The translations under genes were made by a program, and so were the position numbers. From positions 512,062 to 576,061 of the forward strand of contig CAWBFV010000008.1 in the NCBI GenBank assembly GCA_963788235.1: a stretch of 64,000 nt of DNA, written 5' to 3'. A model generated the notes under the pieces. That model searched no databases. It saw nothing but the letters and a program-made list of their open reading frames with translations, and was not told where the DNA came from. Position 1 is the first letter of the stretch. The number at the start of each line of letters is the position of its first letter. This DNA comes from an uncultured Chloroflexia bacterium (GTDB lineage Bacteria; Chloroflexota; Limnocylindria; Limnocylindrales; CSP1-4). Positions 6,336-57,535 of this stretch are shown here, piece by piece.

Positions 6336-6929
6336 CTAGCCCGGCAGGTCGCTCGGGACGTCGACGTCGCGCAGCGTCTCCCCGGTTGGATCGTCGAGGC
6401 GCCAGACGGCCGGGCGGATCACGCGGACGTCGAGCTCGCCGAGCAACGCTCGGAGACGACGTTCGCCCCCTGCCAGGAGTCGGTCGGCGGCGGCCCGAGC
6501 GGCGACGGATCGGGCAGCAATGGGCAGTGGTCGCGGACCCGCGTCGTCGGCGAGGACCGCTACCTCGTGCCCGTCGAGCGCGTCGAGCAGCCGGGCCAGG
6601 ACCGCGGGCACCAGCGCCGGCATGTCGCCGCCCACGACGAGGACCCATTCGATGGCCGGATCGACCGCGGCGAGGCCCGTCGCGAGACCGGCGAGCGGGC
6701 CGTCGAATGGTCGCGCGTCGCGCACCACGCGGACGTCGGCGGGCACGTCGCGCGCATCGTCAGGCGCCACCACCACGATCACGTCGCTGGTGAGACCGCG
6801 CACCGCGTCGATCGCCAGGTCGAGCATCGGCCGTCCATCGACCGGCTCCGCGAGCTTGTCCCGACCGAAGCGCGACGATCGCCCGCCGGCCAGGACGATC
6901 GCCCCGACGCGGTCCGCCGGGGGCGTCAT
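6336..6929 (-). CDS. mobA: Molybdenum cofactor guanylyltransferase
   Basis: GAIVLAGGRSSRFGRDKL N-terminal signature. The ATG overlaps the selB stop (ATGA at 6926-6929). Confidence 0.85.
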   Translation of the reverse strand: MTPPADRVGAIVLAGGRSSRFGRDKLAEPVDGRPMLDLAIDAVRGLTSDVIVVVAPDDARDVPADVRVVRDARPFDGPLAGLATGLAAVDPAIEWVLVVGGDMPALVPAVLARLLDALDGHEVAVLADDAGPRPLPIAARSVAARAAADRLLAGGERRLRALLGELDVRVIRPAVWRLDDPTGETLRDVDVPSDLPG

Positions 6930-8692
6930 CGACCGACAGCGGCCGGTGCCTTCGCGCCCGGCACGTGACCGGCCGGCGTGCGCCGCAGGATCGCGCGGCG
7001 GTCGAGGTCCGCGAGGATCGCCATCACGTACTTGCGGCTCGTGCCGGTCGCGTCGCGCAACGCGGCCGGCGTCAGCGGGTCGCGCGCAGCGAGCTCGAGC
7101 GCCGTCGCGGCGAAGTCACGGTACGTGGATGTCGCGTAGGCGAGGTCGTCGTCGAGGACGACGATCCGCCCGTCGCGCTCGAGCTGGCGAACCCCCGCGG
7201 TCGGACAACCGGCGGCCCGTGCGGCATCCGTCAGGGACGGCGGCGTCGGCACGGACAGGAGGGCCTCCACGCGGTCCATCGCCGCGACCGTCGCCGGGTC
7301 CGCGGCCGGTGCCGCGATGCCGGGTGCCTGCAGCACGTCGCCGTCACGGGTGAGGCGACTGTCGGCAACGACCCGGTCCAGCACGACACCGGCTGCCGCG
7401 AGCGCCTCGTCCCGTCGGACGGTGGCCGCGCGTCGCAGGGTCAGCGCGACCGACGTCCGGACCGCCGACGACGTCGCGCCCCCGCCGACCGCCTCGATCG
7501 CCGCGGTCTCGGCAGCGCCCGCGACATCGCTCGCCAGCTCGCCCCCGAGGATCCCGTGCAGGTCGAGGCGCGCCCCCGGCCGGGGATCGATCAACGCCCC
7601 CACACGCTCCGGCGTCTGGCGCCGACGCGACAGGCCGCGGGGTGGCAGGGGGTCAAGCACGAGCCCACCGATCGGCAGGACCGGTGCCCCGCGGCGCAGC
7701 ACGAATCGGTCGCCGGCCCGCAGCGCGATCGGCTGCGCGAGGCGAATGATCCCGGCGACACGGCCGTCGGGCAGCGAGATCGCGTCCCGCCCGGCACGAC
7801 CGACGACCGCATCGACCGCGGCGGTCCCCGCGTGCACCCGACCGGCCGCTCGATCCGCGACGACCCCGTCGAACGCCACCAGGACGCGGTCGGTGGCCGT
7901 GACCTCGGGGTCGACGGTGAGGACCATCCCGCGGTGGAGCGCGGCGCGCTCGACGCCCCCGAGGTTGAGCGCGGTCCGACCGCCGCGCTCGACTCGCTCG
8001 ACCGGGGACCCGTGGACCTGGATCTCGCGGATCCGCGCCCGGCTGCCGTCGCTCGGGATGAGGCCGAGCGTGTCGCCGCGCGCCAGCGGACCACCGCGCA
8101 GCGTGCCGGTGACCACGACGCCGCGGCCCTTCGCCGTGAAGACCCGGTCGATCGCGAGTGTGGCGGGGCGATCCGGCAGCCGCACCTGGTCCCGCAGCAC
8201 CAGCACGGCATCGCGGACCGCCTCGACGCCGGCTCCGGTCAGGCTCGAGACGGCAAGGATCGGGGAACCGGCAAGCACCGTGGCGGCGAGCATCGTCTCG
8301 ACCTGGTCGCGGACGGCGCGGACGCGCTCCGCGCCGACGGCGTCGACCTTGGTGATGACCACGATGCCGATCCCGATCGCGAGCGCGTCGAGCAGCGCGA
8401 GATGCTCATGCGTCTGCGCGCGCGGGCCGTCGTCGGCGGCGACGGCGAGCATCACCGCATCGATCTCGCCCGCTCCGACGAGCATGTTGCCGACCAGCTT
8501 GTCGTGACCGGGGACGTCGACGAAATCGATCGATGTGCCGTCCTCGAGATCGAGATGCGCGTAGCCGACGTCGATCGTCATGCCGCGCCGCTGCTCTTCG
8601 GGCAGGCGATCGGCATCGATGCCGGTCAAGGCGTGGAGCAGCCGCGTCTTGCCGTGGTCGATGTGGCCGGCCGTGCCGACGACGACCGTCAC
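6926..8692 (-). CDS. selB: Selenocysteine-specific translation elongation factor
   Basis: [12 protein letters not shown]1 motif, DVPGH, and long C-terminal winged-helix-type domains. GTG at 8692 overlaps the selA stop (GTGA). Confidence 0.9.
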
Positions 8693-10057
8693 GCGACGCT
8701 CGCAAGCGCAGCCGTGACCGCGGCCGCGACACTGGCATCGGCGCCGGGATCGACCGTCCGTAGGTCGAGCACCACGCGTCCGTCCTCGATGCGGCCGATG
8801 ACCGCGGGCTGTCCCGCGCGCAAGGCGGCAAGGAGCCTCGTCGCGGACCGCGCCGACAGGCCCACGCCGGCCGACGGCAGCGTCTCGCCGGGGAGCGAGC
8901 CACCACCGACGGTCGCCTCGAGATCGACGGCGTCCGCGTCCGCACCGATCGCCCGCGCGACCGCATTCGCCCGAGCCTGTACGCCGGCGAGTGGGGCCGC
9001 GATCATCCGCCAGATCGGGATGTCGAGGACCGCGCGCCCGGATCGGTACAACCCGAGGGTGAGCGCGACACCGGCCATGCGTCGCCTTGTCGGGCCGCAT
9101 CGCTCGTGCCAGCGGGTCACGACGCATCCGCGCGACGAGGTCCGCGCGACCGACGACCAGCCCTGCTTGCGGCCCCCCGACGAGCTTGTCGCCGCTGAAC
9201 GTCACGAGGTCCGAACCCGACGCCAATCGCTCCGCCGGCATCGGCTCGTGCGACAGGCCGTAGGCCGCGGTGTCGAGCAGCGCGCCGGAGCCGAGATCGT
9301 CGATCACGAACGCGTCCTGGCGATGGGCCAGGTCGGCCACCTCCGCTGGATCCGGGGCCTCGGTGAACCCGGTCATCGCGAAGTTCGAAGGGTGGACGCG
9401 GAGGACGGCGCGAGCGCGGCCGTCCGCCAACGGCGCCTCGAAGTCCTTTGCGCGCGTTCGATTGGTGGTCCCGACCTCGACCAGCCGCGCCCCGGCGCGC
9501 CGGATGATCTCGGGGATGCGGACGCCGCCGCCGATCTCGACCAGCTCGCCGCGCGACACGACGATCCCGCCGCGTCCGACCAGGCCGACCGCCAGCGCGA
9601 GCGCCGCGGCGTTGTTGTTGGTCACGAACGCATCCTCGGCGCCGGTCAGTGCCACCAGGTGGTCCTCGGCGACGCGCGCGCGCTGGCCGCGTCGGCCGCT
9701 CGACCGATCCATCTCCAGCAGCGCGTAGTCGCTCGCGACGGCAGCGACGGCCGCCGCGACCGCCAACGGCCAGGGCGCTCGCCCGAGATTGGTATGGATC
9801 AGCACACCGGTCGCGTTGATCACCGCGGGCAGCCCTGTCGTGTCGAACGCCTGGATCCGGCCCCGCGCCTGGTCGGCGAGCGCCGCCGCATCGCGCGGTT
9901 CGGCGCCGTCGCGGATCCGTGCTCGCTCCTCGTCCACGACGCGCCGAACGACCTCCGTCAGCGCCGGGGCATCCGACCCATCGACGCTCGGTCGAAGCCG
10001 GCGCAGCACGGCGTCGACGCTGGGCGGACGAGGACGTGCGACCGGTTTCGACGACAT
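8689..10057 (-). pseudogene. selA: L-seryl-tRNA(Sec) selenium transferase, reading frame broken near 9079
   Basis: N-terminus reads from ATG 10057, preceded by GGAGG, and includes FSGDKLVGGPQAG (PLP lysine). After ...RPDKAT the conserved continuation MAGVALTLGLYRSG...GGGSLPG...IGRIEDGRVVLDLRTV is in the next frame (track ORF 8689..9120). Confidence 0.9.
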
Positions 10058-10067
10058 CGGGCCTCCG

Positions 10068-10164
10068 TGGCGGGAACGCGTGGGAGTCGAACCCACCACG
10101 CCGCGCCGAGCGCGGCGCCACCGATTTTGAAGACCGGGGGACCCACCGGGGCCCATCCATTCCC
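10068..10164 (-). tRNA. selC: tRNA-Sec (anticodon UCA)
   Basis: 97-nt reverse complement GGGAATGG...CTTCAAA...GGTTCGACTCC...CGTTCCCGCCA. It shows a 6-bp D stem with a 4-nt loop, anticodon loop CUUCAAA, a long GC-rich variable arm, a T arm and an encoded CCA. Confidence 0.9.
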
Positions 10165-10230
10165 GGAGCGATGGTAATGCGCTCGGCCCTGACTCGGCCC
10201 GCACGGCGGCGGGCAACCTATCATCGGCGG

Positions 10231-11283
10231 GTGACGACGCTGGACCGACTCCCCGACGTCCGATTGACGACGCTGACCGACTGCGGTGGCTGTGCCGCCA
10301 AGCTCGGGGCCGACCTCCTGTCCGAGGCGCTCAGCGGTCTTGGGGCCGAGGCATCGCCGGACGCCTTGATCGCCGGGCTGCACCCGCCCGATGACGCCGC
10401 CGCCTACCGGCTCACCGACGAGCTGGCGGTCATCGGAACGCTCGACTTCTTTCCTCCGCTGGTCGACGACCCGCGGACATTCGGCGAGATCGCGGCCGCG
10501 AACGCGCTGAGTGACGTCTTCGCGATGGGTGGCCGCGTCCTGTTCGCGTTGTCGATCGCGGCGTTCCCCGAAGACCTGTCACGGGACGTGATGGCGCGGA
10601 TCTTCGAGGGGGCATCGGCGAAGGTGCGCGAGGCCGGTGGAACGCTTGCCGGCGGACACACGATCCGCGATCCGGAGCCCAAGTACGGTCTGGCGGTCAT
10701 CGGCGTCGGCCACCCCGATCGCCTGCTCCGCAAGGGCGGCGCGCGACCCGGGGACGTGCTGCTGCTGACCAAACGTCTCGGGACCGGGCTGCTCGTGAGC
10801 GGTGAGCGGCAGGGCGCCACATCGGCAGCGGACCTGGCCACCGCGATCGACGAGATGCGGGCGCTCAACCGCGCCGCCTCGGAGGTCCTCGTGGCGCACG
10901 GCGTCGTAGCGGCCACCGACGTGACGGGGTTCGGGTTGCTGGGTCACGGGTTGGAGATGGCGCGGGCGTCGGGCGCCCGGTTTGTGTTCGACGCTGCCGC
11001 GCTGCCGGTCCTGCCCGGCGCGCTCGCACTCGCGCGGGACGGGGTGGAGACCGGTGGTGGCGGTCACAACCGCCGGTTCGTCGGCTCCGCCCTGGTGCTC
11101 GCCGACGGTGTGCCACCGGAGCTCGTGACGCTCGCGCACGATCCGCAGACGAGCGGCGGTCTGCTCGCGGCGGTCGCGCCGGACCGCGTCGCGCAGGTGC
11201 GATCCGACCTGGCGGCTGCCGGCGTGGATGCGTGGAGCATCGGCCGGGTCGAGGAGGCCGACCCGGCCGTCGTGCTCCGCTAA
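10231..11283 (+). CDS. selD: Selenide, water dikinase (Cys-type active site)
   Basis: LTDCGGCAAKLG N-terminal active-site loop and the AIR-synthase-like fold motif GGHTI. GTG 10231 is chosen by alignment of the N-terminus length to known SelD; an upstream ATG at 10171 is possible. Confidence 0.9.
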   Translation: MTTLDRLPDVRLTTLTDCGGCAAKLGADLLSEALSGLGAEASPDALIAGLHPPDDAAAYRLTDELAVIGTLDFFPPLVDDPRTFGEIAAANALSDVFAMGGRVLFALSIAAFPEDLSRDVMARIFEGASAKVREAGGTLAGGHTIRDPEPKYGLAVIGVGHPDRLLRKGGARPGDVLLLTKRLGTGLLVSGERQGATSAADLATAIDEMRALNRAASEVLVAHGVVAATDVTGFGLLGHGLEMARASGARFVFDAAALPVLPGALALARDGVETGGGGHNRRFVGSALVLADGVPPELVTLAHDPQTSGGLLAAVAPDRVAQVRSDLAAAGVDAWSIGRVEEADPAVVLR

Positions 11284-11286
11284 GGG

Positions 11287-12153
11287 TCAGGTCGGGCGGA
11301 TCTGGACCGTATCGATGATGGCTCGCAGGTCCGCCTTGTCGGCCGCAGTCGTGCTCGGGAAGTCGAACGCGTCGATGATGATCCGCTTCCCTTCCACGTC
11401 GAGGATCCAGACCTGGTCGTGCTCGCCGTCGAGCGCCTCGCGGAACGAGGTCCTGGCGGTGGTCCAGCGATACAGGTGGGTGGCAGTGCAACCCCGGCTG
11501 TAGTCGGCCGTGTAATCGAGGAAGCGACCCGAATACCCCCCGACACTGACGGCCTTGTCCTGGTTGACGATCGTGCCGGGCTGTTTGACCAGGGCATCGG
11601 CAAGGTCGTCGACCGTCGAACCGATCGGGGGATCCTTGGCGCCGAGGTTCGCGCCGCACGGTGTTGCATAGACATTCTCTGCGGTCCAGAAGGTGAAGCC
11701 CATGCCCGGCGGATCCGCCGAACGCTTGAACCAACCTTTGCCGCCGAGGCCGTCGTCGCCCCACAGCGTCCAACCCTCGCCGACGACCTGGAAGCTGATG
11801 TTCGCCGGATACGGAGGCCCGACGGTGAACGTCGATGGTCCCACGGACGCCGACGGCGAGGCCGCCGCGCTCACCGACGGGGTCGGGCTCGGGCTGGGTG
11901 GACCGGTACCCACGCCGCTCGACGAGGGCAAGAGTTGGCTCGCCCCGAAAGCGATCACGACCACCGCAGCCAGGGCCGCGGCAGCGCGAGCGATGGTATT
12001 CATGGACGGTTCCCTCCACGGGCCGATCACGACCCGCTGACGTGTTCGATCGATGTGGTCGCGGACGTCGTCGTACGTCCGCATCGGCAGTTCGGTCGGA
12101 CCCTCGTCGAGGAACGCCTGGATGAGTCGATCGGGCTCGCGTGGACTGGTCAT
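11287..12153 (-). CDS. Putative anti-sigma factor / single-pass membrane protein with uncharacterised extracytoplasmic domain
   Basis: Translationally coupled (ATGA) to the upstream ECF sigma gene. It has a short cytoplasmic N-terminus, one TM helix (IARAAAALAAVVVIAF), a Pro/Ser linker and a roughly 190-aa outer domain. Confidence 0.5.
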   Translation of the reverse strand: MTSPREPDRLIQAFLDEGPTELPMRTYDDVRDHIDRTRQRVVIGPWREPSMNTIARAAAALAAVVVIAFGASQLLPSSSGVGTGPPSPSPTPSVSAAASPSASVGPSTFTVGPPYPANISFQVVGEGWTLWGDDGLGGKGWFKRSADPPGMGFTFWTAENVYATPCGANLGAKDPPIGSTVDDLADALVKQPGTIVNQDKAVSVGGYSGRFLDYTADYSRGCTATHLYRWTTARTSFREALDGEHDQVWILDVEGKRIIIDAFDFPSTTAADKADLRAIIDTVQIRPT

Positions 12154-12704
12154 GCCGGTCGCTCCTCGGAGACGGAGGGCGCACGAGCGTCGGCATCGAC
12201 GCTCGCGCGGAGCGCTGCCGTGGCGTGGTGGAGGCGCGACTTGACGGTCCCGAGCGGGATCCCGAGTCGATCAGCCACCTCCGCCAGGGGCAGGCCCACG
12301 TAGTGATGGAAGACGAGCACCGCGCGCTGCTCGAGCGTCAGCCTCCGGAAGGCACGCTCCAGCTCATCGCGGTCGTTGACGGTCAGGACATCGGCAGGCT
12401 CGCGAGGCCCGTCGAGCTGGACGAGATGAAGATCGGCTGACCAGCGGCGGCGACGCCGGGCCTCGGCGTAGCACTCGTTGGTCAGGATCCGATGGAGCCA
12501 GGGTTCGAACCGATCGGGATCGCGCAGTGTCCTGATCTCGCGCCACGCCGTGATGAGCGCCACCTGGACGGCGTCGTCAGCCAGGTCGGTGTCGCGCAGG
12601 ATCCGGTAGGCGATGGCCATGCATCGATCGCCGACGGTCCGCGCCAACGCATCGAACGCCTCGGCGTCCCCACGTCGCGCACGGTCCACGAGCGCTCGAT
12701 CCAC
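12150..12704 (-). CDS. ECF-type RNA polymerase sigma factor (sigma-70 family)
   Basis: Region 2 (DAVQVALITAWRE...FEPWLHRILTNE) and region 4 (LTLEQRAVLVFHHYVGLPLAEVADRLGIPLGTVKSRLH). Confidence 0.85.
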   Translation of the reverse strand: MDRALVDRARRGDAEAFDALARTVGDRCMAIAYRILRDTDLADDAVQVALITAWREIRTLRDPDRFEPWLHRILTNECYAEARRRRRWSADLHLVQLDGPREPADVLTVNDRDELERAFRRLTLEQRAVLVFHHYVGLPLAEVADRLGIPLGTVKSRLHHATAALRASVDADARAPSVSEERPA

Positions 12705-12832
12705 CCGTCACTCCTTCCCTGGATCGCCTCCCGATGGAGGGATCAGCCTGAAGAGGGTCTCGGGGGCCAGAAGGTTCTATCTGCAGTGGCAAACCATGGT
12801 GAGGGGCTGCCGTTGTGGAGGGCCGGGCGCGT

Positions 12833-13414
12833 TTAGCGGAGGCGCGAGAACACCCCGATACACGCGGCGACGAGTCCGATCAGGACGGCCGGAATGCTCT
12901 GCAGGAGGAACGCGTCCAGCGGGTAGTCCGGTAGCCCGGCACCCTCGGCACTGTCGGCGAAGGCCTGGATCTCGCGCCACGAGCCGACGAGCGAGAACGA
13001 CGCGCCGAGGAGTCCGCCGAGAACGATCCCGGCGATCGCGATCGTCAGGATGCGCGGCCCGCGCTTGATCCCGACCGAACGATCGAGGGCTTCGGCGATG
13101 AACCGTCCCGCGAAGTAGCCAAGGACGATCGTGAACAGGCCGATCTGGGCCCCGAAGTAGCCGACCGCGGCGCCCAGCCCGCCCGCGACGAGCGTGGCCA
13201 GCGCGACCTGCCGTGGCTGGAGGGTGGCCAGCGCATCTCGAGACGGCTTGCCGCAGGTCCTGCAGCGCAATCCGACCGGGCCCTGCATCGCGCACCTGGT
13301 GCAGATCGGCTGGTCGCAGCGACCGCAGCGGACCCAGGTCTCGCGGTCCGGGTGGCGGTAGCAATAGAGCGGCTGGTTCTCGGACAGGTCTGCGGTCGCG
13401 GCGTCGCTCGTCAT
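12833..13414 (-). CDS. B-box-type zinc-finger membrane protein
   Basis: CYRHPDRETWVRCGRCDQPICTRCA...CRTCG followed by about 4 predicted TM helices. ATG at 13414. Confidence 0.5.
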   Translation of the reverse strand: MTSDAATADLSENQPLYCYRHPDRETWVRCGRCDQPICTRCAMQGPVGLRCRTCGKPSRDALATLQPRQVALATLVAGGLGAAVGYFGAQIGLFTIVLGYFAGRFIAEALDRSVGIKRGPRILTIAIAGIVLGGLLGASFSLVGSWREIQAFADSAEGAGLPDYPLDAFLLQSIPAVLIGLVAACIGVFSRLR

Positions 13415-13471
13415 GGTCCCCTCGGCGAATCGATGGGGAGGGTGGGGTCCGACCGCGCTCACGTCAAGGGG

Positions 13472-13482
13472 TACACTCGGCC
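13472..13482 (+). promoter_or_regulatory. TACACTCGGCC motif (-10-like TACACT) upstream of the FDH catalytic gene
   Basis: Identical 11-mer recurs at 19419-19429 upstream of the NuoE-NuoF gene. Here it sits about 25 nt upstream of AGGAGG (13496-13501) and GTG 13509. Confidence 0.35.
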
Positions 13483-13508
13483 GCAGGTCATCCGCAGGAG
13501 GACGCCGA

Positions 13509-15422
13509 GTGGCGAAACCGTATGTTCGTCTGACCCAGCCGATGGTCCGCGACACCAAGGACGGCCCCTTGCGCGCCGCTTCCTGGGATGAGGCGCTGGA
13601 CCGCGTGGTCGCCGGGTTCGCCGCCGCCAAGGCGGCGCATGGACCGACGACGTTCGGCACCTTCAGCTGCAGCAAGGCGACCAACGAGGTCAACTTCGCC
13701 GCGCAGAAGTTCAGCCGGGCCGTGCTGGGCAGCAACAACATCGACAGCTGCAACCGCACCTGACACGCCCCGAGCGTCGCCGGTCTGGCGACCGTGTTCG
13801 GTGCCGGTGGCGGCACAAGTTCATACCGTGAGGTCGAGGACACCGATCTGATCGTCCTCTGGGGCAGCAACGCCCGCGAGACGCATCCGATCTTCTTCCA
13901 TCACGTCCTCAAGGCCGTCAACAAGGGCGCGCGGCTCTATGCGGTCGACCCCCGGCGCACGTCGTCGGCGGAATGGGCCGACAGCTGGCTCGGCCTCGAC
14001 GTGGGCAGCGACATCGCGCTCGCGAACGCGGTCGGCCGCGAGATCATCGCCTCCGGACTGCACCATCGCGAATTCATCGAGCGGGCCACCGCCGATTTCG
14101 AGGCGTACGAGGCCACGGTCGAGCCCTACACGCTCGAGTACGCCGAACGCGAGACCGGCGTCCCGGCCGACGCGATCCGCGACCTCGCCCACGCCTTGGC
14201 GACAGCACCCCGCGCGATGATCTGCTGGACGCTCGGCATCACCGAGCACCACAACGCCGTCGACAACGTCCTCGCGCTGATCTCATTGGTGCTGCTGACC
14301 GGGCACGTCGGGCGGTACGGCAGCGGCGTCAACCCGCTCCGTGGCCAGAACAACGTCCAGGGCGGCGGCGACATGGGCGCACTCCCGGACCGGTTGCCGG
14401 GGTTCCAGCACGTCGAGAACGACGAGCTCCGCACGAAGTTCGACCAGGCCTGGGGCGTGACGATCCCACCGAAGCGCGGCTGGCACTTGTCGGGCATGTT
14501 CGATGCCATGGAGCGCGGCGAGCTGACCGCCGTGTACTGCATCGGGGAGAACCCCGTCCAGTCCGAGGCCGATCAGCATCGCGCGATCAAGCTGCTGTCG
14601 GGTCTCGAGATGCTCGTGGTCCAAGACCTGTTCCTCACGAAGACCGCCGAGCTGGCGGACGTCGTGCTCCCCGCGTCCGCGGCATGGGCAGAGGGTGAGG
14701 GCACCGTCACAAACTCGGAGCGACGGGTCCAGCGGATCCGCAAGGCGGTCGAGCCGCCAGACGGCGCTCGCGACGACCTCGCGATCATCTTCGAGATCGC
14801 CGACCGGATGGGCGCGAACTGGGGCGACCCAGCCGCCGAGCGGGTCTGGGACGAAGTCAGATCGCTATCGCCGGTCCACGCCGGGATGAGCTATCAGCGG
14901 CTCGAGGAGCTTGGCGGGATCCAGTGGCCGTGCTACGACGAGACCCATCCCGGCGAGCTGTTCCTGCATAGCCGGCTCTGGGAGGATCCCGTGCCCGGCA
15001 ATCGCGTGCCATTCGTCCCGGTCGAGCACGATCCGCCGGTCGACAAGCTCAGCGACGACTTCCCGATCCGGCTCACGACCGGGCGACGGCTCGACTCGTA
15101 CAACACGGGTGTGCAGACCGCGGGCTACACCTCGCCGTTGCGTCGCGGCGAGTCCCTCGACATCTCACCCGAGGATCTGGAGACCTATGGCCTCGCCGAC
15201 GGCGAGCGCGTCCGGGTCGTGTCTCGCCGAGGCCAGGTCGAAGCGCCCGTCCGGATCGATCCGTCGTTGCGGCCGGGTCTCACGTTCATGACGCTCCATT
15301 TCCAGGACGATGTCGCGACGAACCTGCTGACGATCGACGCGACCGATCCCAAATCCGGCACGGCGGAGTTCAAGGCGACCGCGATCCGGATCGAGAAGCT
15401 GGAAGAGGCCATCCCGGCCTGA
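13509..15422 (+). CDS. fdhA: Formate dehydrogenase catalytic (molybdopterin) subunit, selenocysteine-containing (UGA at 13761-13763)
   Basis: Track ORFs 13413..13763 and 13794..15422 are in the same frame. The junction reads NNIDSCNRT-U-HAPSVAGL, matching the FdhF-type ...ARVUHGPSVAGL active site. Downstream motifs VNPLRGQNNVQGGGDMGALP are also present. The gene lacks the N-terminal Fe4S4 domain; the protein begins at the equivalent of RLKTPMIR. Confidence 0.9.
13764..13800 (+). promoter_or_regulatory. Bacterial SECIS element
   Basis: Hairpin GTCGCC-GGTCT-GGCGAC (13776-13792). The GGUCU apical loop starts 19 nt after the UGA, the same loop sequence and spacing as I recall for E. coli fdhF. 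Confidence 0.75.
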
Positions 15423-15564
15423 ACGACGGGCCGGAGCTCGCTCCGACTGACCTCGACTCCCCGTACATACGGGCGATGGCGCAACAGAAATCGAGGTCAT
15501 ACGTTTCCCCGCTACAGCCTACCCAAGCGCCTGAGGGGTATCACGGGCGCGGGGAACACCGTCG

Positions 15565-17742
15565 ATGTCGCAAGAACCGCGAACGCCATTGGTATTTCGA
15601 CCGGACCTGGAAGGGCTCCGGGGTGTGGCGATCCTGCTCGTCCTGGTCTGTCACGCCGGGATCCCCGGTGGCGAAGCCGGGTTCATCGGCGTTGACCTGT
15701 TCTTCGTGCTGTCGGGCTTCCTCATCACCGGTCTCCTCGTCAGCGAGGCCGAGGCGACCGGCCGGATCCAGCTCGCGGCCTTCTACGCGCGGCGGGCGCG
15801 GCGGATCCTCCCGCCAGCAGCCGTGGCCATCATCGGCACGCTCGCGGCGGCGAGCTTCGTGCTCTCACCGCTGGATATCCCGGCCATCGCCGACGACGCC
15901 CTCGCCGCCGGACTATCGCTCGCGAACGTCCATTTCGCGATCTCGGCGACCGACTACTTCGCCCCGGTCGACCCGTCTCCGTTCCTGCACTTCTGGTCGC
16001 TTTCGGTCGAGGAGCAGTACTACCTGATCTGGCCGGTCGTGCTCGGGCTCGCCGCTCGCCGTGCCCGCCCCCGACTGACGATGACGGTCATCGCCGCGAT
16101 CGTGCTGATCGGGTCGCTCGTGCTGTCGCTCGTGCTGACGCCCGTCGCCGGGCCATGGGCGTACTTCTCGCTCCCGGGCCGAGCGTGGCAACTGGCGGCC
16201 GGCGGCGCGCTCGCCCTCGCGGGCACCGGCCTGATCCGCCTGCCGAAGCCGATCGCGGTGCTCTCCGGCTGGATCGGTGCGGCACTGATCATCGTGTCGC
16301 TGTTGGCGATCTCGCCGATGACCGCGTACCCCGGGGTCGCCGCTGCCGGTCCGACGCTCGGCGCGCTGGGACTGATCGTGGGCGGGACGGTTCCGGGCTC
16401 GCCCGGTTGGTTGATCCTGCAGCGCGGCCCGGTGCGCTGGCTCGGCCGGATCTCGTACTCGCTCTACCTCTGGCACTGGCCGGTGCTGGTGCTCGGCGCC
16501 GCTGCCGTGGGTGCGGCTGCCACCGATGATGCGCCGGTCGCGGACCCGTTGGCCCTTCGCCTCGCCCTGATCGGCATCGCCGTCGCGCTGGCAGCCATCT
16601 CGACCTCGCTGATCGAGCGGCCGTTCCGGGCCGGACGGCTCTCGCGCGGCGGCCACCGGCGGTGGCTCGCCACGGCCGGCGCCGCGGTGCTCGGCATCGC
16701 GATCGGCTCGTCGGCGATGGGCATCGCCGCGCGCGACATCGTGTCCGCGGCGGACACGCAGGGTCTCGACGGCGAGACCGCTGCGCTGCTCGACCCGGGC
16801 GAGGGACCAGTCCACCTCGATGACGGCGAGCTCGCCGGCCCGACGTCCGGGCCGCCGCTTCCGTCGCCAGTGCCGAGCGCCTCACCGACGCCGTCGACGG
16901 CACCGACGCCCGCCCCACGGCCTCGGCCCAAGCCGCTCCTGGCGGGACCCGTTCCCGGGAACCTGACCCCGACGCTCGCGAAGGCGCGGAACGACGGCGA
17001 TCGATTGATCTCCGATGGATGCAGCCTGGGGCTCGCCGGATCCACGCCCCCGACCTGCGTCTATGGCGATCGAACGGGCGCGATCACGATCGCGCTGGTC
17101 GGCGATTCCCATGCTGCGAGCTGGTTCCCCGCGTTCCGCAAGCTCGCTGTTCGTCACCACTGGCGCCTGATCCCGTTCACGAAGTCGAGCTGCCCCTTCC
17201 TCGACGCGCGCGTCTGGTCGACGTACCTCGGTCGCGAGTACACCGAGTGCACGACGTGGCGCGAGCTCGTCATCGCGAAGCTCGTGAAGATCAAGCCCGA
17301 CGTGGTCGTCATCGCCGGCAATCGCTGGTTCCCGGTCGTCGACGACCTCGACAATTCGCCGAAGCGGCAGGGAGCGGCAACCGCGCGGCTGATCGAGCGC
17401 ATCCCAGGGCGAATCGCGCTGATGGTCGACACGCCGCGCTCCGCCTACGACGTCCCGGCGTGCCTCGCCAGCCATCGCGACGCGATCGAGGACTGCACGA
17501 CGTCGAGGGCGAACGCGTTCGGCTGGCGGCACCGCCAGCGAGAACGGGAAGCCGCGCGCCGGACCGGCGCGGCGATCATCGATCTGTCCAAGGCGACCTG
17601 CCCGTCCGATCCATGCCCGCCGATCATCGGCCGGCGGCTCGTCTATCGCGATCACCACCATCTGACCGCGACGTTCGTCGTCTCGCTCGCCGACGACCTC
17701 GACGCGGCCCTGGCACCGGTGCTCGAGGCGGCGCGGCCGTGA
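15565..17742 (+). CDS. Acyltransferase family 3 membrane protein with C-terminal SGNH domain (OafA/YrhL-like)
   Basis: RPDLEGLRGVAILLVLVCH...GVDLFFVLSGFLIT N-terminus, about 10 TM helices, and a C-terminal GDSHA motif. Confidence 0.85.
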   Translation: MSQEPRTPLVFRPDLEGLRGVAILLVLVCHAGIPGGEAGFIGVDLFFVLSGFLITGLLVSEAEATGRIQLAAFYARRARRILPPAAVAIIGTLAAASFVLSPLDIPAIADDALAAGLSLANVHFAISATDYFAPVDPSPFLHFWSLSVEEQYYLIWPVVLGLAARRARPRLTMTVIAAIVLIGSLVLSLVLTPVAGPWAYFSLPGRAWQLAAGGALALAGTGLIRLPKPIAVLSGWIGAALIIVSLLAISPMTAYPGVAAAGPTLGALGLIVGGTVPGSPGWLILQRGPVRWLGRISYSLYLWHWPVLVLGAAAVGAAATDDAPVADPLALRLALIGIAVALAAISTSLIERPFRAGRLSRGGHRRWLATAGAAVLGIAIGSSAMGIAARDIVSAADTQGLDGETAALLDPGEGPVHLDDGELAGPTSGPPLPSPVPSASPTPSTAPTPAPRPRPKPLLAGPVPGNLTPTLAKARNDGDRLISDGCSLGLAGSTPPTCVYGDRTGAITIALVGDSHAASWFPAFRKLAVRHHWRLIPFTKSSCPFLDARVWSTYLGREYTECTTWRELVIAKLVKIKPDVVVIAGNRWFPVVDDLDNSPKRQGAATARLIERIPGRIALMVDTPRSAYDVPACLASHRDAIEDCTTSRANAFGWRHRQREREAARRTGAAIIDLSKATCPSDPCPPIIGRRLVYRDHHHLTATFVVSLADDLDAALAPVLEAARP

Positions 17743-19373
17743 GGAGAGCAGGACCCGCCGGCCTCGCGGTGGTCGCGATCGCGATGCTCGTGACGGGCTG
17801 TGGGCCGACGCCGATCCCGGCCGGTGCGCCGCCGGACCGTGCCCTCTCGAGCCCCCCGCCAGCCGCTGCGCCCATCCATACACCAGAGTCCGGCCCCGCG
17901 TCCGTTCCCTCTGCACCGGCGCCGCCGACCCCGCCTGAACCCCGCCCCGCGTCGGCATCAACGCGCGTCATCCACGAAGGCGCCATCAGCCCGAAGCCGC
18001 GATCGGTCGCGGATCGTGCCTGGGAGCCGGTCGTCGCCACCCACCCGACGGATCCCGACCGCATCGCGGTCGTCTACGAGCATCGCGGACCCGGCGCGGC
18101 GTGCTCGGTCAACCCGCTCATCCGCATCTCGCACGACGGCGGTCGGACGTGGCGGACGACGCGGTCGGGTCCGGGCGCTCGCTCGAGTCGGGGCATGGGC
18201 CTCCATGCGGCGATCGCCTGGGGGCCCGGACCGCGTGGCGGCACGCGCCTGTACTGGGCCAACATGACGTCGCCTGGTTGCGGCGCCGGGCGGTTCAGCC
18301 TGTCGACTGCGTACAGCGACGACGAGGGGCGGACCTGGTCGCGGCTTCGGGTCGAGCGTCGCACGCCGCCGTGGGTCGGCGGGTTCCCCGAGATCGCGGT
18401 CGATCGCGACCCGCGCAGCCCGAACCACGGGACGGTGTATGTCGGCTACAACTGGCTCGGAGCCGGCGCCCACGGACCGGGCTTCCGGTTGTTGGCGTCG
18501 TCGGACTTCGGACGCACGTGGCGGTCGACCGAGGTCAAGCCGGCACCCCTGGCGCGCGGGGCGATCGATTGGTGGCGCATCGCCTATCGATTGCGCCCGG
18601 CACCGGACGGCAGCGTGTACGCCGCCTGGTACCAGGTCGACGTGCGCCAGTGGGATCGCCGGAACATCTTCGCCAAGGGCGGCTCGGGCAACGTCGTCCG
18701 GCTCGGGGTCGGGATCGCCCGGATCAGGTTCGAGCCCGGCACCGGCCAATTCGCGATCGGCCCGTCACGGATCGCCACCCGGATCGCCGAAACGCCATGG
18801 ACCACATCGGGCGCCAGCGCCTCAGGCACGGCCGGCAACATCCGCCCCGACCCGATGTGGCAGTACGGCTTCGACGTCGACCCGGACGGTCGGCTCTATC
18901 TGGCGGTCGGTGGGTATGGCGCGGCGCGGCTCGGGTTCGGGCGGGGCACGATCCGGGCGGGCTATTCGGACGACCAGGGCCGGACCTGGCGATTCGCAAC
19001 GGTGCCGGCGGCGCCGCACGTCGACGGGCGGCGCCAATCGATGCTCCGCCCGAACCTCGTGACAGGACGGGGCTATGTCCTGGTCACGTTCCGGACGCTC
19101 GACGACGTCGGCGCCAACGCGACGATGGGGGCGGCGTATGCGGTCTCGGTCGACCGCGGCGCGACGTGGCGGTTCGGGCGACCGGTGCACGGCGTCCGCT
19201 GGCGCGCCTCGAATCTCGACGGCGTGGTCAACGGGGCCGGGCTGCGCGAGCGAGCCGAGCGGACCGCCGATGGCGACGTCATCTGGGCGTACGGCGACGG
19301 CCGTCTTGCGATCGGCCGGGCCGCGGGGCGAACGGCGATCTTCGGGGCGAGGATCCACATCGAGGTCCGCTGA
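17739..19373 (+). CDS. BNR-repeat (sialidase-fold) lipoprotein
   Basis: GTG overlaps the upstream stop (GTGA). Lipobox LVTGC. Five SxDxGxTW repeats (SHDGGRTW, SDDEGRTW, SSDFGRTW, SDDQGRTW, SVDRGATW). Confidence 0.7.
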   Translation: MRRAGPAGLAVVAIAMLVTGCGPTPIPAGAPPDRALSSPPPAAAPIHTPESGPASVPSAPAPPTPPEPRPASASTRVIHEGAISPKPRSVADRAWEPVVATHPTDPDRIAVVYEHRGPGAACSVNPLIRISHDGGRTWRTTRSGPGARSSRGMGLHAAIAWGPGPRGGTRLYWANMTSPGCGAGRFSLSTAYSDDEGRTWSRLRVERRTPPWVGGFPEIAVDRDPRSPNHGTVYVGYNWLGAGAHGPGFRLLASSDFGRTWRSTEVKPAPLARGAIDWWRIAYRLRPAPDGSVYAAWYQVDVRQWDRRNIFAKGGSGNVVRLGVGIARIRFEPGTGQFAIGPSRIATRIAETPWTTSGASASGTAGNIRPDPMWQYGFDVDPDGRLYLAVGGYGAARLGFGRGTIRAGYSDDQGRTWRFATVPAAPHVDGRRQSMLRPNLVTGRGYVLVTFRTLDDVGANATMGAAYAVSVDRGATWRFGRPVHGVRWRASNLDGVVNGAGLRERAERTADGDVIWAYGDGRLAIGRAAGRTAIFGARIHIEVR

Positions 19374-19418
19374 CGCGCGGCATCCCCAACCGGCCCCGGC
19401 ACGTCGCCTGAGCAGCGC

Positions 19419-19429
19419 TACACTCGGCC
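19419..19429 (+). promoter_or_regulatory. TACACTCGGCC motif; -10-like hexamer 7 nt upstream of ATG (candidate leaderless promoter)
   Basis: Second exact copy of the 11-mer. There is no Shine-Dalgarno sequence between it and ATG 19432. Confidence 0.35.
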
Positions 19430-19431
19430 CG

Positions 19432-21279
19432 ATGGACCTGCACGTCATCGGGCCCCTCGCCTTCCCCGCCGAGCGCGCCGCGGTCGACAGCGTGCTCGGG
19501 CAGCCCGAATCCGGCTGGGTCGGGGGCCCGCGCCGACCGGGGACCGAGGGGCACGCGTCGCGCGGCGGCCACGCGGTCCGTGCGCGGCGCTCCCAGCTGC
19601 TGCCGGCGCTCCACGCGGTCCAGGACCGCGTCGGGTGGATCAGCCAGCCGGCCCTCAACTACATCTCACGGCGGCTCGCCGTGCCGCCGGCCGAGGCGTA
19701 CGGCGTCGCGACCTTCTACGCGCTCTATGCGACCAAGCCAAGGCCGCCGGTCATGGCCCATGTCTGCGACGACATCGCGTGCCGGATCGCCGGCGCGGAA
19801 CGGATCTGCGATGACCTCGAGCGGGCGGTCGGGCCGGAGGGCGAGGCGGCGCGCGACGGGCAGGTCGGGTGGCTCCGGTCGCCGTGCCTGGGCCTGTGCG
19901 ACCTGGCACCGGCGGCCCTCATGACCGCAGCGGGCGAGGAGGCGTCGCTCGCCAGCGCCGCGCCGGTCGACGCCGCCGGGATCGTCGCGCGGCTCGAGGG
20001 CGCGGCGTTCGGTCGGCCGGCGCCGCGGCTGCCGCAAGCGGGCTCCGAGCACCTTCGCCTGTTGCGGCGCATCGGTGTCGTCGACCCGACGTCGCTCGAC
20101 GCGTACCGCGCGGATGGCGGCTACGAGGCGCTGTCGAAGGCGATGTCGATCGGCGCCGAGGCGGTCATCGCCGAGGTGACGGCGTCGAAGCTGATGGGTC
20201 GTGGCGGCGCCGCATTCCCGACCGGTCGCAAATGGGCCGCGGTCCGCGACCAGGCCGCGCAGCCGCACTACCTCGTGTGCAACGCCGACGAGTCGGAGCC
20301 GGGCACGTTCAAGGACCGCGTGCTCCTCGAGGGCGACCCGTTCGCGATCGTGGAGGCGATGACGATCGCGGCCTTCGCGACCGGTGCCAGCCAGGGCTAC
20401 CTGTACATCCGCGGCGAGTATCCCGAGGCGGATGCGCGGATCCGCGGCGCGATCGCTGCGGCGCGAGCAGCCGGCCTGCTCGGCGCCGACATCCAGGGCT
20501 CGGGCTTCGCGTTCGACATCGAGGTTCGCCGCGGGGCCGGGGCCTATATCTGCGGCGAGGAGACCGCGCTGTTCGAGTCGATCGAGGGCAAGCGCGGCGA
20601 GCCGCGCAACAAGCCGCCGTTCCCGGTCGAGGTCGGGCTGTTCGGCAAACCGACCGTCGTGAACAACGTCGAGACGCTCGCCAACGTGCCGCTGATCCTG
20701 GCGATGGGCGGCGATGCGTACGCCCGGATCGGGACGGAGGGATCGACGGGTCCCCGCCTGTTCTGCCTGTCTGGCCACGTCCAGCGGCCCGGCGTCTACG
20801 AGGTCGAGTTCGGTGCGACGCTGGGGGACCTGATCGGCATGGCCGGTGGCGTCCCGAACGACAAGGCGATCAAGGCCATCCTGCTCGGCGGCGCGGCGGG
20901 CGTCTTCGTCGGCCCCGACTCGCTCGATCTGCCGCTCACGTTCGAGGCGACGCGCGCCGCCGGCGCGACGCTCGGGTCGGGCGTGATCATGGTGTTCGAC
21001 GAGACCGTCGACCTCGTCGACACGCTCCGTCGGATCGCCCGGTTCTTCCGCGACGAGTCGTGTGGCCAGTGCGTCCCCTGCCGGGTCGGCAGCGTGCGCC
21101 AGGAGGAGCTCCTTGCCCGTCTTGCCGCGGGGTCGCACGTCCGCTCCCGGGAGGACGAACTCGGCCTGCTGCGCGAGATCGGCCAGGCGATGCGCGACGC
21201 ATCGATCTGCGGGCTTGGCCAGACCGCGTCATCGGCGATCGAGTCGGCGCTTCGGCAGCCGGGATTGGTCGCGCTGTGA
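19432..21279 (+). CDS. NAD-linked formate dehydrogenase diaphorase subunit, NuoE-NuoF (FdsG-FdsB-like) fusion
   Basis: NuoE-type 2Fe-2S cysteines (HVCDDIAC...SPCLGLC). NuoF motifs GRGGAAFPTGRKW and ESEPGTFKDR, and the 4Fe-4S motif ESCGQCVPCRVG. Confidence 0.9.
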   Translation: MDLHVIGPLAFPAERAAVDSVLGQPESGWVGGPRRPGTEGHASRGGHAVRARRSQLLPALHAVQDRVGWISQPALNYISRRLAVPPAEAYGVATFYALYATKPRPPVMAHVCDDIACRIAGAERICDDLERAVGPEGEAARDGQVGWLRSPCLGLCDLAPAALMTAAGEEASLASAAPVDAAGIVARLEGAAFGRPAPRLPQAGSEHLRLLRRIGVVDPTSLDAYRADGGYEALSKAMSIGAEAVIAEVTASKLMGRGGAAFPTGRKWAAVRDQAAQPHYLVCNADESEPGTFKDRVLLEGDPFAIVEAMTIAAFATGASQGYLYIRGEYPEADARIRGAIAAARAAGLLGADIQGSGFAFDIEVRRGAGAYICGEETALFESIEGKRGEPRNKPPFPVEVGLFGKPTVVNNVETLANVPLILAMGGDAYARIGTEGSTGPRLFCLSGHVQRPGVYEVEFGATLGDLIGMAGGVPNDKAIKAILLGGAAGVFVGPDSLDLPLTFEATRAAGATLGSGVIMVFDETVDLVDTLRRIARFFRDESCGQCVPCRVGSVRQEELLARLAAGSHVRSREDELGLLREIGQAMRDASICGLGQTASSAIESALRQPGLVAL

Positions 21280-22374
21280 CCCAGGACACGAGCGGGCTGT
21301 CGATGAGCCGCGACCCGGCGCCGGATCCGCGGTCGCCCCACGCCGGCCAGGCGCCTGCCGCGCAGCCGCTCACCGAGATCGTCCTGTTCCCGCCGGCCCG
21401 CCCCTCGAAGCCACCGGTGGCGCCACCGGTCGAGCCGCCACCGACCGTCGAGCTGACGATCGACGGGCAGACCGTCGCCGTCCCTGCGGGGACGACGATC
21501 CTCGGGTGCGTGCCGGGCGCTCGGCATCGACACGCCGACGCTGTGCTACGCCGAGAACCTGACGCCGGTCAACGTGTGCCGCGTCTGCGTGGTCGAGGTC
21601 ACCGGGTCGCGGGTGCTCGCCCCGGCCTGTTCGCGCAAGGTCGAGCCAGGGATGGAGGTCCAGACCGACACCGATCGCGTCCGGACCTCGCGCAAGGTCG
21701 TGCTGGAGTTCCTCGGCTCGTCGGTGGACGTGTCCTTGACCGGTCCGGCGACTCCCGACGGCACGATCCACGACTACATGGCCCGCTACGGCGCCGATCC
21801 GTCGCGCTACGGTCCGCCGGCGGAGGCCGCCCGCGCCGGGGAGCGCGACAGCCACGAGCCGGGGCATCATCACGCGCCTGCGGGCGATGCCACCACGGCC
21901 ACGGTGGCCCAGCCGACGAAGGTCGACAACGACCTCTATGTCCGCGACTACTCGAAGTGCATCCTCTGCTACAAGTGCGTCGAGGCGTGCGGCGAGGACG
22001 CGCAGAACACGTTCGCGATCGCGGTGGCCGGCCGCGGGTTCGATGCCCGCATCTCGACCGAGCAGGCCGTCCCGCTGCCGGAGTCGGCGTGCGTGTACTG
22101 CGGCAACTGCATCGGCGTGTGCCCGACCGGCGCGTTGATGGCCAAGCCCGAGTACGACATGCGGGCGGCCGGCACCTGGGATGAATCGGCCCAGACCGTC
22201 ACGAGCACGATCTGCCCGTACTGCGGCGTCGGCTGCGTGGTCGACCTGCACGTCCAGGACGACCGCATCCTGAAGGTGACGTCGCCGCTCGACTCATCGG
22301 TGACCGGTGGCCACCTGTGCATCAAGGGCCGGTTCGGCTTCGAGTTCGTGAACGAGCGGCCGCAGCAGGGCTAA
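21276..22374 (+). pseudogene. Formate dehydrogenase alpha, N-terminal Fe-S module only (NuoG-like), reading frame broken near 21505
   Basis: GTG overlaps the nuoF-like stop (GTGA). ...VELTIDGQTVAVPAGTTILG is in one frame and ACRALGIDTPTLCYAENLTPVNVCRVCVVEV... is in the next, consistent with an extra G in the GGG run at 21504-21506. Two ferredoxin-type CxxCxxCxxxC motifs follow. The Molybdop_Fe4S4 motif ICPYCGVGC...GHLCIKGRFGFEFVN is followed 6 codons later by the stop. Confidence 0.8.
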
Positions 22375-23363: not shown

Positions 23364-24254
23364 CTAGCCCCAGCCGGTCAGGTCGCGCAGGTCGATCCGG
23401 CGGTCGTGGCTGTACACGTTGAAGCCATCGCCCCGCAGGAAGCCCACGAGCGTCACGCCGAGCCGCTCGGCGGTCTCGACCGCCAGGTCCGATGGGGCCG
23501 ACACCGCCGCGAGGATCGGTGCCCCCGCGATCGCGGCTTTCTGGACGATCTCGAAGCTCACGCGCCCCGACACCATCACGATCCGGTCGTGCAGGGGCAG
23601 CGCGCCGGCCAGCAGCTGTGCCCCGATCAGCTTGTCGAGCGCGTTGTGCCGCCCGACGTCCTCGCGGATGTCGATGAGCTCGCCATGCGGCGAGAACAGC
23701 GCCGCCGCGTGCAGGCCACCGGTGGCGTCGAAGGCGCGCTGCGCGGCCCGCAACAGGTCGGGGAGTGCCAGGATCACGGTCCGCGGCACGACCGGGCCCT
23801 CGGGCAGGATGTCGCAGCGGAGCGCGATCTCGTCGATCGACGCCTTGCCGCAGATGCCGCACGACGCCGTCGCCACGAAATGGCGCTCGGCGACCGCGCT
23901 GTCGTCGAACGGCACCGTGAGCCGCACGATGATGGTGTCGTCGGGCTGGTTGAGCGTGACGGGATCGCCGGCCTCCCACGACTCGACCTCGTGCCCCTCG
24001 ATCAAGCCCTCGGTCCGGAGGAACCCGACCGCCAGCTCCGCCTCGTGGCCGGGTGTGCGCATCGTCACCGCGACCGCGACCGGCTCCTGGCCCGGCCCGG
24101 CGGCCCGGATCTCCAACGGTGCTTCGCCGACGACGCGATCGGCGCGGACCTCCAGGGTGTCGCCGCGGACCGTGACCACCGAGCGCGTCGTGATGTGGCG
24201 CGTCGGCGAGACGTGCGAGGGCTGCGCGGTCGCCGGATCGGTCGAATGGGTCAT
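23364..24254 (-). CDS. fdhD: Formate dehydrogenase accessory sulfurtransferase
   Basis: SCGICGK catalytic loop and EDVGRHNALDKLIG motif. Confidence 0.9.
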   Translation of the reverse strand: MTHSTDPATAQPSHVSPTRHITTRSVVTVRGDTLEVRADRVVGEAPLEIRAAGPGQEPVAVAVTMRTPGHEAELAVGFLRTEGLIEGHEVESWEAGDPVTLNQPDDTIIVRLTVPFDDSAVAERHFVATASCGICGKASIDEIALRCDILPEGPVVPRTVILALPDLLRAAQRAFDATGGLHAAALFSPHGELIDIREDVGRHNALDKLIGAQLLAGALPLHDRIVMVSGRVSFEIVQKAAIAGAPILAAVSAPSDLAVETAERLGVTLVGFLRGDGFNVYSHDRRIDLRDLTGWG

Positions 24255-57459: not shown

Positions 57460-57535
57460 TGCGATCGCGTTCCTCCGTCCGACTTGTGCATCCCGCACCA
57501 AACAGGCGGGTCGTGCACCTCGGGAGGCAACGCTA

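Follow-up and report, generated by a model that had tools for sequence, protein, structure and literature searches.

Alpha subunits of formate dehydrogenase (FDH) are among the best-known bacterial selenoproteins. In E. coli fdhF, the catalytic selenocysteine (Sec) and the His that follows it lie in the context U-H-x-P-S-V-A-G-L, the V-A-G-L codons form the hairpin of the selenocysteine insertion sequence (SECIS), and the UGA is decoded with the products of selA, selB, selC and selD; the protein has its own FS0, the proximal [4Fe-4S] cluster, and acts in formate hydrogenlyase. The FdsABG enzymes (R. capsulatus, 6TG9; Cupriavidus necator FdsA) bring together a NuoE-/NuoF-like flavoprotein, a NuoG-like Fe-S part, FS0 and a module with molybdenum-bis(pyranopterin guanine dinucleotide) (Mo-bisPGD), and FdsA is one polypeptide of ~958 amino acids (aa) with a Cys ligand. 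In the HylABC-FdhF2 or HoxEFU-type enzymes (Clostridium acidurici, C. autoethanogenum), a separate Fe-S protein similar to the N-terminal part of NuoG (HylA or HoxU) bridges the catalytic subunit to a NuoE/F-like module, and the catalytic subunit retains its own Fe-S domains, including 4Fe-4S (PMC5736913). Here we describe an FDH locus with likenesses to each of these systems. It lies in a stretch of 64,000 nucleotides (nt), the window, taken from contig CAWBFV010000008.1 of an uncultured Chloroflexia bacterium (assembly GCA_963788235.1; window G+C ~70%). As judged by sequence comparison, UGA 13761-13763 in the gene of its catalytic subunit very probably encodes Sec in this lineage; the gene product carries only the domains that bind the molybdenum or tungsten cofactor (Mo/W-bisPGD), while FS0 is encoded by a separate gene.

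The original prediction, made from the letters of the window, had stated that two open reading frames (ORFs), 13413..13763 and 13794..15422, share a frame and are split by TGA 13761-13763 alone. The translation of 13413-15422 agreed with it in frame and coordinates: this TGA is the sole interruption, with NNIDSCNRT before it and HAPSVAGLATVFGAGGG after it (in a shorter excerpt, DSCNRT and HAPSVAGLATVFG). The peptide spanning residue 85 would read SCNRT-U-HAPSVAGLATVFGAGGGTSSYR. We observed that residues 7-632 of the product align to residues 61-689 of E. coli FdhF (1AA6, E = 8e-139), with NRT-[TGA]-HAPSVAGL placed over ARV-X(Sec140)-HGPSVAGL and PLRGQNNVQG over PVRGQNNVQG, the motif of Arg333. 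The FdhF of the T. kivui hydrogen-dependent CO2 reductase (7QV7), a Cys-type protein, has Cys in the TGA column. The junction had been predicted to be the FDH active-site context, and it indeed aligns with Sec140-His141 of 1AA6 and with the Cys of T. kivui FdhF; the ortholog alignment, a check named beforehand, puts the TGA at the catalytic Sec/Cys position.

An FDH is defined by its Sec or Cys ligand together with a His and an Arg that are strictly conserved (PMC8808070). The product, translated with the TGA as Cys for the Pfam search, has the Sec/Cys-His dyad and the conserved Arg as well as the Molybdopterin (1.7e-69) and Molydop_binding (2.6e-26) domains.

Relatives were collected by scanning GTDB species representatives, which gave >590 related stretches, of which the best 80 were kept. 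Most of the 80 are metagenome-assembled genomes (MAGs) of Chloroflexota / Candidatus Limnocylindrales, with 76-89% amino-acid identity, while the relatives at 72-76% identity are MAGs labelled Acidobacteriota, Methylomirabilota/Rokubacteria and Isosphaeraceae; four phylum labels thus occur (Chloroflexota, Acidobacteriota, Methylomirabilota and Planctomycetota). The Sec codon is TGA in 81 of the 81 loci, the window included, and TGC or TGT in none. Elsewhere in the window TGA is an ordinary stop codon: it ends the FDH gene itself and five neighbours (the NuoE/NuoF-like gene, below NuoEF, and the selA, selB, acyltransferase and BNR genes). Therefore, the recoding is local and does not reflect a change of the genetic code. 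At one locus (L062:10253 onward) no stop codon follows the TGA for 1,073 codons, suggesting that the stop was lost or that there is an indel.

For the gene start, we found GTG, ATG or TTG at the codon equivalent to 13509 in 62 of 78 loci. A GCAGGAGGCC-type motif is kept 5' of the equivalent start in most loci, and the Shine-Dalgarno sequence is strong in 50 of 78. At two loci (L001 and L004) a stop codon directly precedes the start-equivalent codon. A start at ATG 13413 was ruled out, given the homology from GTG 13509, the conserved Shine-Dalgarno sequence and the preceding stop in L001 and L004.

Downstream of the UGA, the hairpin that had been predicted, with a GGUCU loop 19 nt past the UGA, is present. 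A perfect 6-bp stem, formed by GTCGCC (13776-13781) with GGCGAC (13787-13792), encloses the GGTCT loop, whose first base is the 19th nt after the UGA; GGUC occupies +22..+25 as counted from the U of UGA. The same GGUC is found at +22..+25 in the E. coli fdhF SECIS, whose 48-mer was verified by a 100% match to fdhF (5,426 complete E. coli genomes). The fdhF-like loop and spacing, proposed in the original prediction, agree with the verified sequence. Conversely, the stem differs (GUCGCC/GGCGAC here, GGUUGCA/UGCACC in E. coli), the loop here is a 5-nt GGUCU, and the lower stem is not conserved among the relatives of the window.

The comparison of relatives showed strong constraint on the hairpin. 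In the codon alignment of 80 sequences, the synonymous entropy of the hairpin codons Val-Ala-Gly-Leu-Ala (+5..+9) was 0, 0, 0.29, 0 and 0 bits, respectively. As a control, 99 other invariant codons with 4- or 6-fold degeneracy averaged 1.21 bits, and none had less than 0.1. The flanking codons Ala-Pro-Ser (+2..+4) and Thr-Val (+10, +11) varied freely. The apical stem was 100% paired in 63 distinct sequences, with wobble pairs as the sole changes (C-G to U-G in 10 sequences and U-A to U-G in 5). On this evidence, the hairpin is under nucleotide-level selection beyond protein coding. Since the stem is nearly invariant, the support comes from conservation, i.e., from synonymous-site constraint, and not from covariation. 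The lower stem of the minimum-free-energy fold (13762-13767 with 13793-13798) was tried as a part of the element and rejected; it is 82% paired, and two of its six pairs are broken in 28-37 of the 63 sequences. As the lower helix is not conserved, the functional element is the minimal apical hairpin.

We also asked how often such a motif occurs in the window by chance. A loose SECIS-like hairpin follows 5 of the 1,128 TGA trinucleotides (0.4%), and one of the five, at 13761, is in frame in a gene. The same search, by hairpin motif and position after TGA, found no second selenoprotein gene in the window, as none of the four other matches is in frame in a gene. The window alone gives a moderate case against chance; the decisive evidence is comparative. 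Taken together, the Sec codon and the SECIS follow the canonical fdhF pattern, within an unannotated lineage.

A variant of the loop, GGGCU in place of GGUCU, was seen at four loci labelled Rokuibacteriota, Methylomirabilota or uncultured bacterium (L050:3843-3896, L051:5263-5316, L054:5256-5309 and L058:10253-10306); the equivalent of U24 is G in these sequences. Loop U24 is critical for SelB binding in E. coli, and the variant suggests a co-adapted SelB.

Genes for Sec decoding lie close by (Table 1). The selA, selB, selC and selD genes are all 2-7 kb upstream of the FDH gene, with selA carrying a 1-nt insertion at 9079 in this assembly. The tRNA-Sec has the bacterial 8/5 acceptor/T-stem fold and a long variable arm; its 8-position acceptor stem has a basal G.G mismatch, and its CCA is genomically encoded. 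The selD gene is divergent from selA/selB, and its N-terminus (LTDCGGCAAKLG) has no in-frame TGA; its assignment to the Cys type was made by eye against E. coli SelD. The Chloroflexota relatives share the order selB-selA-selC / selD with the FDH gene next, and tRNA-Sec was directly upstream of selA in 11 of the 11 Chloroflexota loci scanned. In three non-Chloroflexota loci, tRNA-Sec was not found within 10 kb of the FDH gene.

The alpha subunit is split between two genes. In alignments with every solved FDH, homology of the catalytic product sets in near residue 61 of FdhF (residue 308 in R. capsulatus FdsA), and Pfam did not find the Molybdop_Fe4S4 domain in this product. The FS0 [4Fe-4S] domain is encoded not on the catalytic polypeptide but by a separate ORF, the Fe-S gene of Table 1, whose product has a NuoG/HoxU-like [2Fe-2S] region, two ferredoxin-type 4Fe-4S motifs and then, C-terminally, FS0. 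The TIGR01591 profile is divided in the same way: the Fe-S gene matches positions 1-51 and the catalytic gene positions 53-672. The catalytic gene remains below the equivalog cutoff of this model (649.4 vs 666.25 bits), a shortfall that matches the 52 missing N-terminal profile positions. The Fe-S product ends shortly past CPYCGVGC, and in the relatives the stop codon always comes 5-30 residues after KGRFGF. A fused Cys-type relative, P0127 (46% identical), reads across the same point. Therefore, the cut falls within the short linker that joins FS0 to domain II, and nothing is lost.

This arrangement is conserved. The order catalytic, NuoEF, Fe-S was found in 61 loci, and nine more loci reach NuoEF before the contig ends; among the loci the order is never reversed, and no member of it is on the other strand. 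A mark of an FdsABG-type enzyme, NuoE/F-like subunits encoded with the catalytic subunit, is present in syntenic form in 61 loci. In compact operons, which comprise the non-Chloroflexota loci and several Chloroflexota, 4-60 nt separate the catalytic gene from NuoEF; in the other Chloroflexota relatives this gap holds 0.4-7.3 kb of variable cargo. The cargo in the window consists of an AT3-SGNH acyltransferase gene (15565-17742, plus strand) and a gene of a BNR/Asp-box repeat protein (~17958-19373, plus strand). The operon is repeatedly interrupted at the catalytic/NuoEF junction in Limnocylindria-like genomes. One locus, L060, has no NuoEF or Fe-S genes in the 7.9 kb downstream and is the sole long-flank locus without them.

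The family is discrete at the level of 50%-identity clusters, and its identity to the closest full-length fused proteins does not exceed 46%. A homologue without FS0, P0257 (620 aa, 36% identity), begins at the same RLxxPL position and has ARFYYAPGF instead of the Sec/Cys-His dyad; it is a catalytically different or degenerate paralogue with the same truncated architecture. Being without Sec/Cys-His, it gives no information on Cys-type split FDHs. A full-text literature search, of incomplete coverage and thus no proof of novelty, found neither this operon order nor an FDH whose alpha subunit is divided at the FS0 boundary, and NCBIfam has no dedicated model for a split FDH. The conserved split and gene order are, as far as we found, an undescribed variant, while the Sec recoding itself is mechanistically nothing new. 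The original prediction had not included the start at GTG 13509, the 1-nt insertion in selA or the fact that the alpha subunit is split and this gene encodes its catalytic half alone.

TABLE 1. Coordinates of the FDH genes, their signals and the Sec decoding genes in the window.
Feature	Position	Strand	Evidence and remarks
FDH catalytic subunit gene	13509..15422	+	Mo/W-bisPGD domains only; 637 codons including predicted Sec85; TGA stop
Shine-Dalgarno AGGAGG	13496..13501	+	7 nt 5' of GTG 13509; read from sequence
In-frame UGA, predicted to be read as Sec (codon 85), then catalytic His86	13761..13763	+	Aligns with Sec140 of 1AA6; TGA in 81/81 loci
SECIS apical hairpin GUCGCC-GGUCU-GGCGAC, presumed SelB binding site	13776..13792, loop 13782-13786	+	Conservation; fdhF-like position
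Fused NuoE/NuoF-like (FdsG/FdsB-like) subunit, binding flavin mononucleotide (FMN) and nicotinamide adenine dinucleotide (NAD(H))	19075..21279	+	Pfam 2Fe-2S_thioredx, Complex1_51K, SLBB, NADH_4Fe-4S; TIGR01959 nuoF_fam 469 bits
Fe-S half of split alpha subunit	21303..22374	+	Pfam Fer2_4, Fer4, Molybdop_Fe4S4 (2.3e-18); repaired product 356 aa
fdhD (sulfurtransferase/chaperone, FDH cofactor sulfuration)	23364..24254	-	Pfam FdhD-NarQ 1.6e-63
selC, tRNA-Sec, anticodon UCA	10068..10164	-	ARAGORN; Rfam RF01852 69.2 bits vs gathering 47
selA (Sec synthase)	8689..10057	-	Repaired product 455 aa; Pfam SelA 4.7e-90
selB (Sec-specific elongation factor)	6926..8692	-	Pfam GTP_EFTU, GTP_EFTU_D2, SelB-wing_3; GTG start overlaps selA stop
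selD (selenophosphate synthetase), Cys-type, no selenoprotein	10231..11283	+	Pfam AIRS, AIRS_C

Set against the described enzymes, the locus differs from E. coli fdhF in its setting as well: FdhF works with its own FS0 in formate hydrogenlyase, whereas the enzyme of the window comes with a NuoEF-like module. The module content is that of FdsABG. The catalytic product aligns to residues 308-931 of R. capsulatus FdsA, and a gene of the FdhD/FdsC type is nearby as in FdsABG. Unlike the single FdsA chain with its Cys ligand, the window has two polypeptides, cut between FS0 and domain II, and a Sec ligand; the order is permuted, with the catalytic gene first and the Fe-S gene last, and NuoE and NuoF are fused. 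A separately encoded NuoG-like Fe-S subunit is shared with the HylABC/HoxEFU-type enzymes, and HoxU is among the top NCBIfam matches of the Fe-S gene, well below the model cutoff. In contrast to these enzymes, FS0 of the window is on the HoxU-like protein and the catalytic subunit is free of clusters. A Mo/W-bisPGD unit made of two polypeptides and split at a domain boundary occurs in formylmethanofuran dehydrogenase (FwdB/FwdD), to whose FwdB the catalytic product has weak matches. In FwdB/FwdD the cut separates domain III from domain IV, and FS0 remains on the catalytic part; the enzyme belongs to another family and has another reaction partner.

A mechanism can be proposed in which the decoding steps rest on the sequence evidence together with what is known from E. 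coli, and the docking and electron-transfer steps on domain content and synteny. Translation would begin at GTG 13509. As the ribosome nears the UGA, the mRNA 3' of it would fold into the apical hairpin GUCGCC-GGUCU-GGCGAC, to which SelB-GTP with Sec-tRNA(Sec) would bind via its C-terminal winged-helix domains, delivering Sec to the A site. The Sec-tRNA would come from selC and be made by SerRS, SelA and selenophosphate derived from SelD. The predicted product is a catalytic subunit of 637 residues, whose Mo/W-bisPGD centre has the Sec85-His86 dyad and the conserved Arg, and which has no Fe-S cluster of its own. This subunit would dock non-covalently on the NuoG/HoxU-like product of the Fe-S gene, whose FS0 would replace domain I. 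The Fe-S chain would carry electrons to the FMN in the NuoE/F-like subunit and from there to NAD(P)+, with the reverse flow serving CO2 reduction. The whole would resemble FdsABG: a soluble formate dehydrogenase / CO2 reductase linked to NAD(P)+. The sequence analysis itself shows the codon, the hairpin with its nucleotide-level constraint, the active-site alignment, the sel genes and the conservation of split and gene order; from these we infer actual Sec insertion, the assembly of three polypeptides and NAD(P)+ as redox partner.

If the proposed assembly is correct, it would be, to our knowledge, the first Mo/W-bisPGD class with the proximal [4Fe-4S] and the pterin cofactor on different polypeptides. 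One may speculate, and we think it rather unlikely, that the split and the permutation are an adaptation to Sec decoding, with the UGA placed early in a short, cluster-free first cistron. Were it so, failed Sec insertion would yield a harmless 84-aa peptide, whereas in a fused gene it would yield an Fe-S fragment of ~390 aa that could poison the FdsBG-like partners; in the compact operons, translational coupling across the 4-60 nt gap would make production of the flavin and Fe-S subunits depend on the supply of selenium.

Several observations weigh against the reading of this locus as a Sec-dependent split FDH. No double compensatory changes were seen in the hairpin among the 63 distinct sequences, where the stem hardly varies. 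In a context of 70% G+C, the stability of the 76-nt fold does not exceed that of its shuffles (z = -0.6). None of the Rfam SECIS families (SECIS_2 to SECIS_5) reached its gathering score at the site, the best being SECIS_3 with 13.7 bits vs 63 (E = 6.5). U17, which is bulged in the E. coli SECIS, is paired in the hairpin of the window. As for the enzyme, two unrelated genes stand between the catalytic gene and its partner genes in the window, and we know of no Mo/W-bisPGD enzyme in which a catalytic subunit has been shown to work with FS0 in trans. Finally, selA as sequenced has one extra C at 9079 (coding strand GCGACG-C-ATGGCC), which shifts its frame. With regard to Rfam, the bacterial SECIS models are clade-specific; the miss lowers the case for membership in those families and not the claim of SECIS function.

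One alternative is that the UGA is a genuine stop, with an 84-aa fragment and/or a 542-aa protein from GTG 13794 as products, or a pseudogene, and an incidental hairpin. It would agree with the unremarkable fold energy, with the absence of any Rfam SECIS family and with the database, where all 120 closest proteins begin after the TGA. Yet the 84 upstream codons are conserved as protein and are part of the same Molybdopterin domain, and the 542-aa product would be without the metal ligand and His. Furthermore, the codon at 13794 is GTC, GTT, GTA or ATC in 37 of 63 distinct relatives; since it is not of start type there, GTG 13794 is no real start, and a restart at this position was ruled out. 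With the third-position G+C of the gene at 0.88-0.89, there is no sign of decay. Given in addition the TGA at the Sec/Cys column in every locus and the invariant hairpin, we regard a genuine stop as very improbable. An assembly or consensus error, with a Cys codon (TGC or TGT) misread as TGA, has a practically negligible probability, even though the window does have two 1-nt insertions and close Cys-type FDHs, e.g., P0127 and T. kivui FdhF, are known. The errors in the window are insertions and not substitutions, and with Cys the SECIS hairpin and the sel genes would be purposeless. Above all, the TGA is common to 80 independent assemblies made in different studies and with different technologies, and therefore the possibility of a consensus error, raised in the original prediction as a way to refute it, is ruled out.

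The two insertions themselves lead to another explanation, in which they are real, the Sec system is broken in this organism, the FDH locus is a recent relic and the UGA terminates. Both selA and the Fe-S gene are indeed interrupted as sequenced, and neither insertion is within a long homopolymer. In selA, Pfam SelA covers profile positions 1-248 of 367 in one frame, and the remainder of the protein is read in the next; removing the base at 9079 restores D-K-A-T followed by M-A-G-V-A-L-T-L-G-L-Y, and relatives carry an intact selA. If the extra C were real, Sec-tRNA(Sec) could not be made. In the Fe-S gene, one extra T at 21507 (CTCGGG-T-GCGTGC), placed by comparison with relatives, shifts the N-terminal [2Fe-2S] domain; its removal restores GTTILG followed by ACRALGIDTPTLCY (longer stretch GTTILGACRALGIDTPTLCY), as in all relatives. 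Conversely, homology is full-length and third-position G+C is high on either side of each inserted base. The contig of 1.16 Mb is typical of long-read assembly, and related long-read MAG loci have frame-broken matches to selA, selB and selD at other places. Sequencing errors are a likelier cause than two separate recent frameshifts in a locus that shows no further decay. The insertions at 9079 and 21507 are in all likelihood assembly errors, probably from long reads, and a broken Sec system seems quite unlikely. An apparent SelA-SelB fusion (ORF 6926-10216 of 1096 aa) was rejected as an artefact of the 1-nt insertion and an alternative frame open by chance.

The preferred reading, a Sec codon within a functional split FDH, bears on annotation. 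Automatic gene callers had been predicted to split or truncate the gene, and the closest 120 proteins in a collection of 5.8 billion show the truncation in every case: all are calls of 540-551 aa starting after the TGA, under the names 'formate dehydrogenase major subunit' or 'YjgC'. With truncated calls that are without the metal ligand and with >590 related stretches, formate metabolism and selenium dependence are likely mis-scored in reconstructions for abundant soil Chloroflexota, Acidobacteriota and Methylomirabilota. As a natural experiment in the separation of FS0 from the pterin domains, the family bears on Mo/W-bisPGD assembly and on the engineering of modular CO2 reductases. Sec-dependent NAD-linked FDHs from apparently aerobic soil lineages are also of interest for O2-tolerant CO2 reduction.

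A scan of 13300-22600 for promoters and terminators found none. Between selD and the FDH gene, the minus-strand region 11287-13414 holds an extracytoplasmic function (ECF) sigma factor gene (12150-12704), flanked by ORFs 11287-12153 and 12833-13414, which have no Pfam or NCBIfam match; the latter is divergent from the FDH start. The sigma factor and a flanking ORF could be a sigma / anti-sigma pair. Between the Fe-S gene and fdhD, a regulator gene of the XRE type (HTH_31/HTH_3; 22371-23135, minus strand) directly follows the Fe-S gene and is convergent with it. Farther away, tandem glutamine synthetase genes were seen on the minus strand (54517-55893 and 56002-57555), both with complete Gln-synt_N and Gln-synt_C domains.

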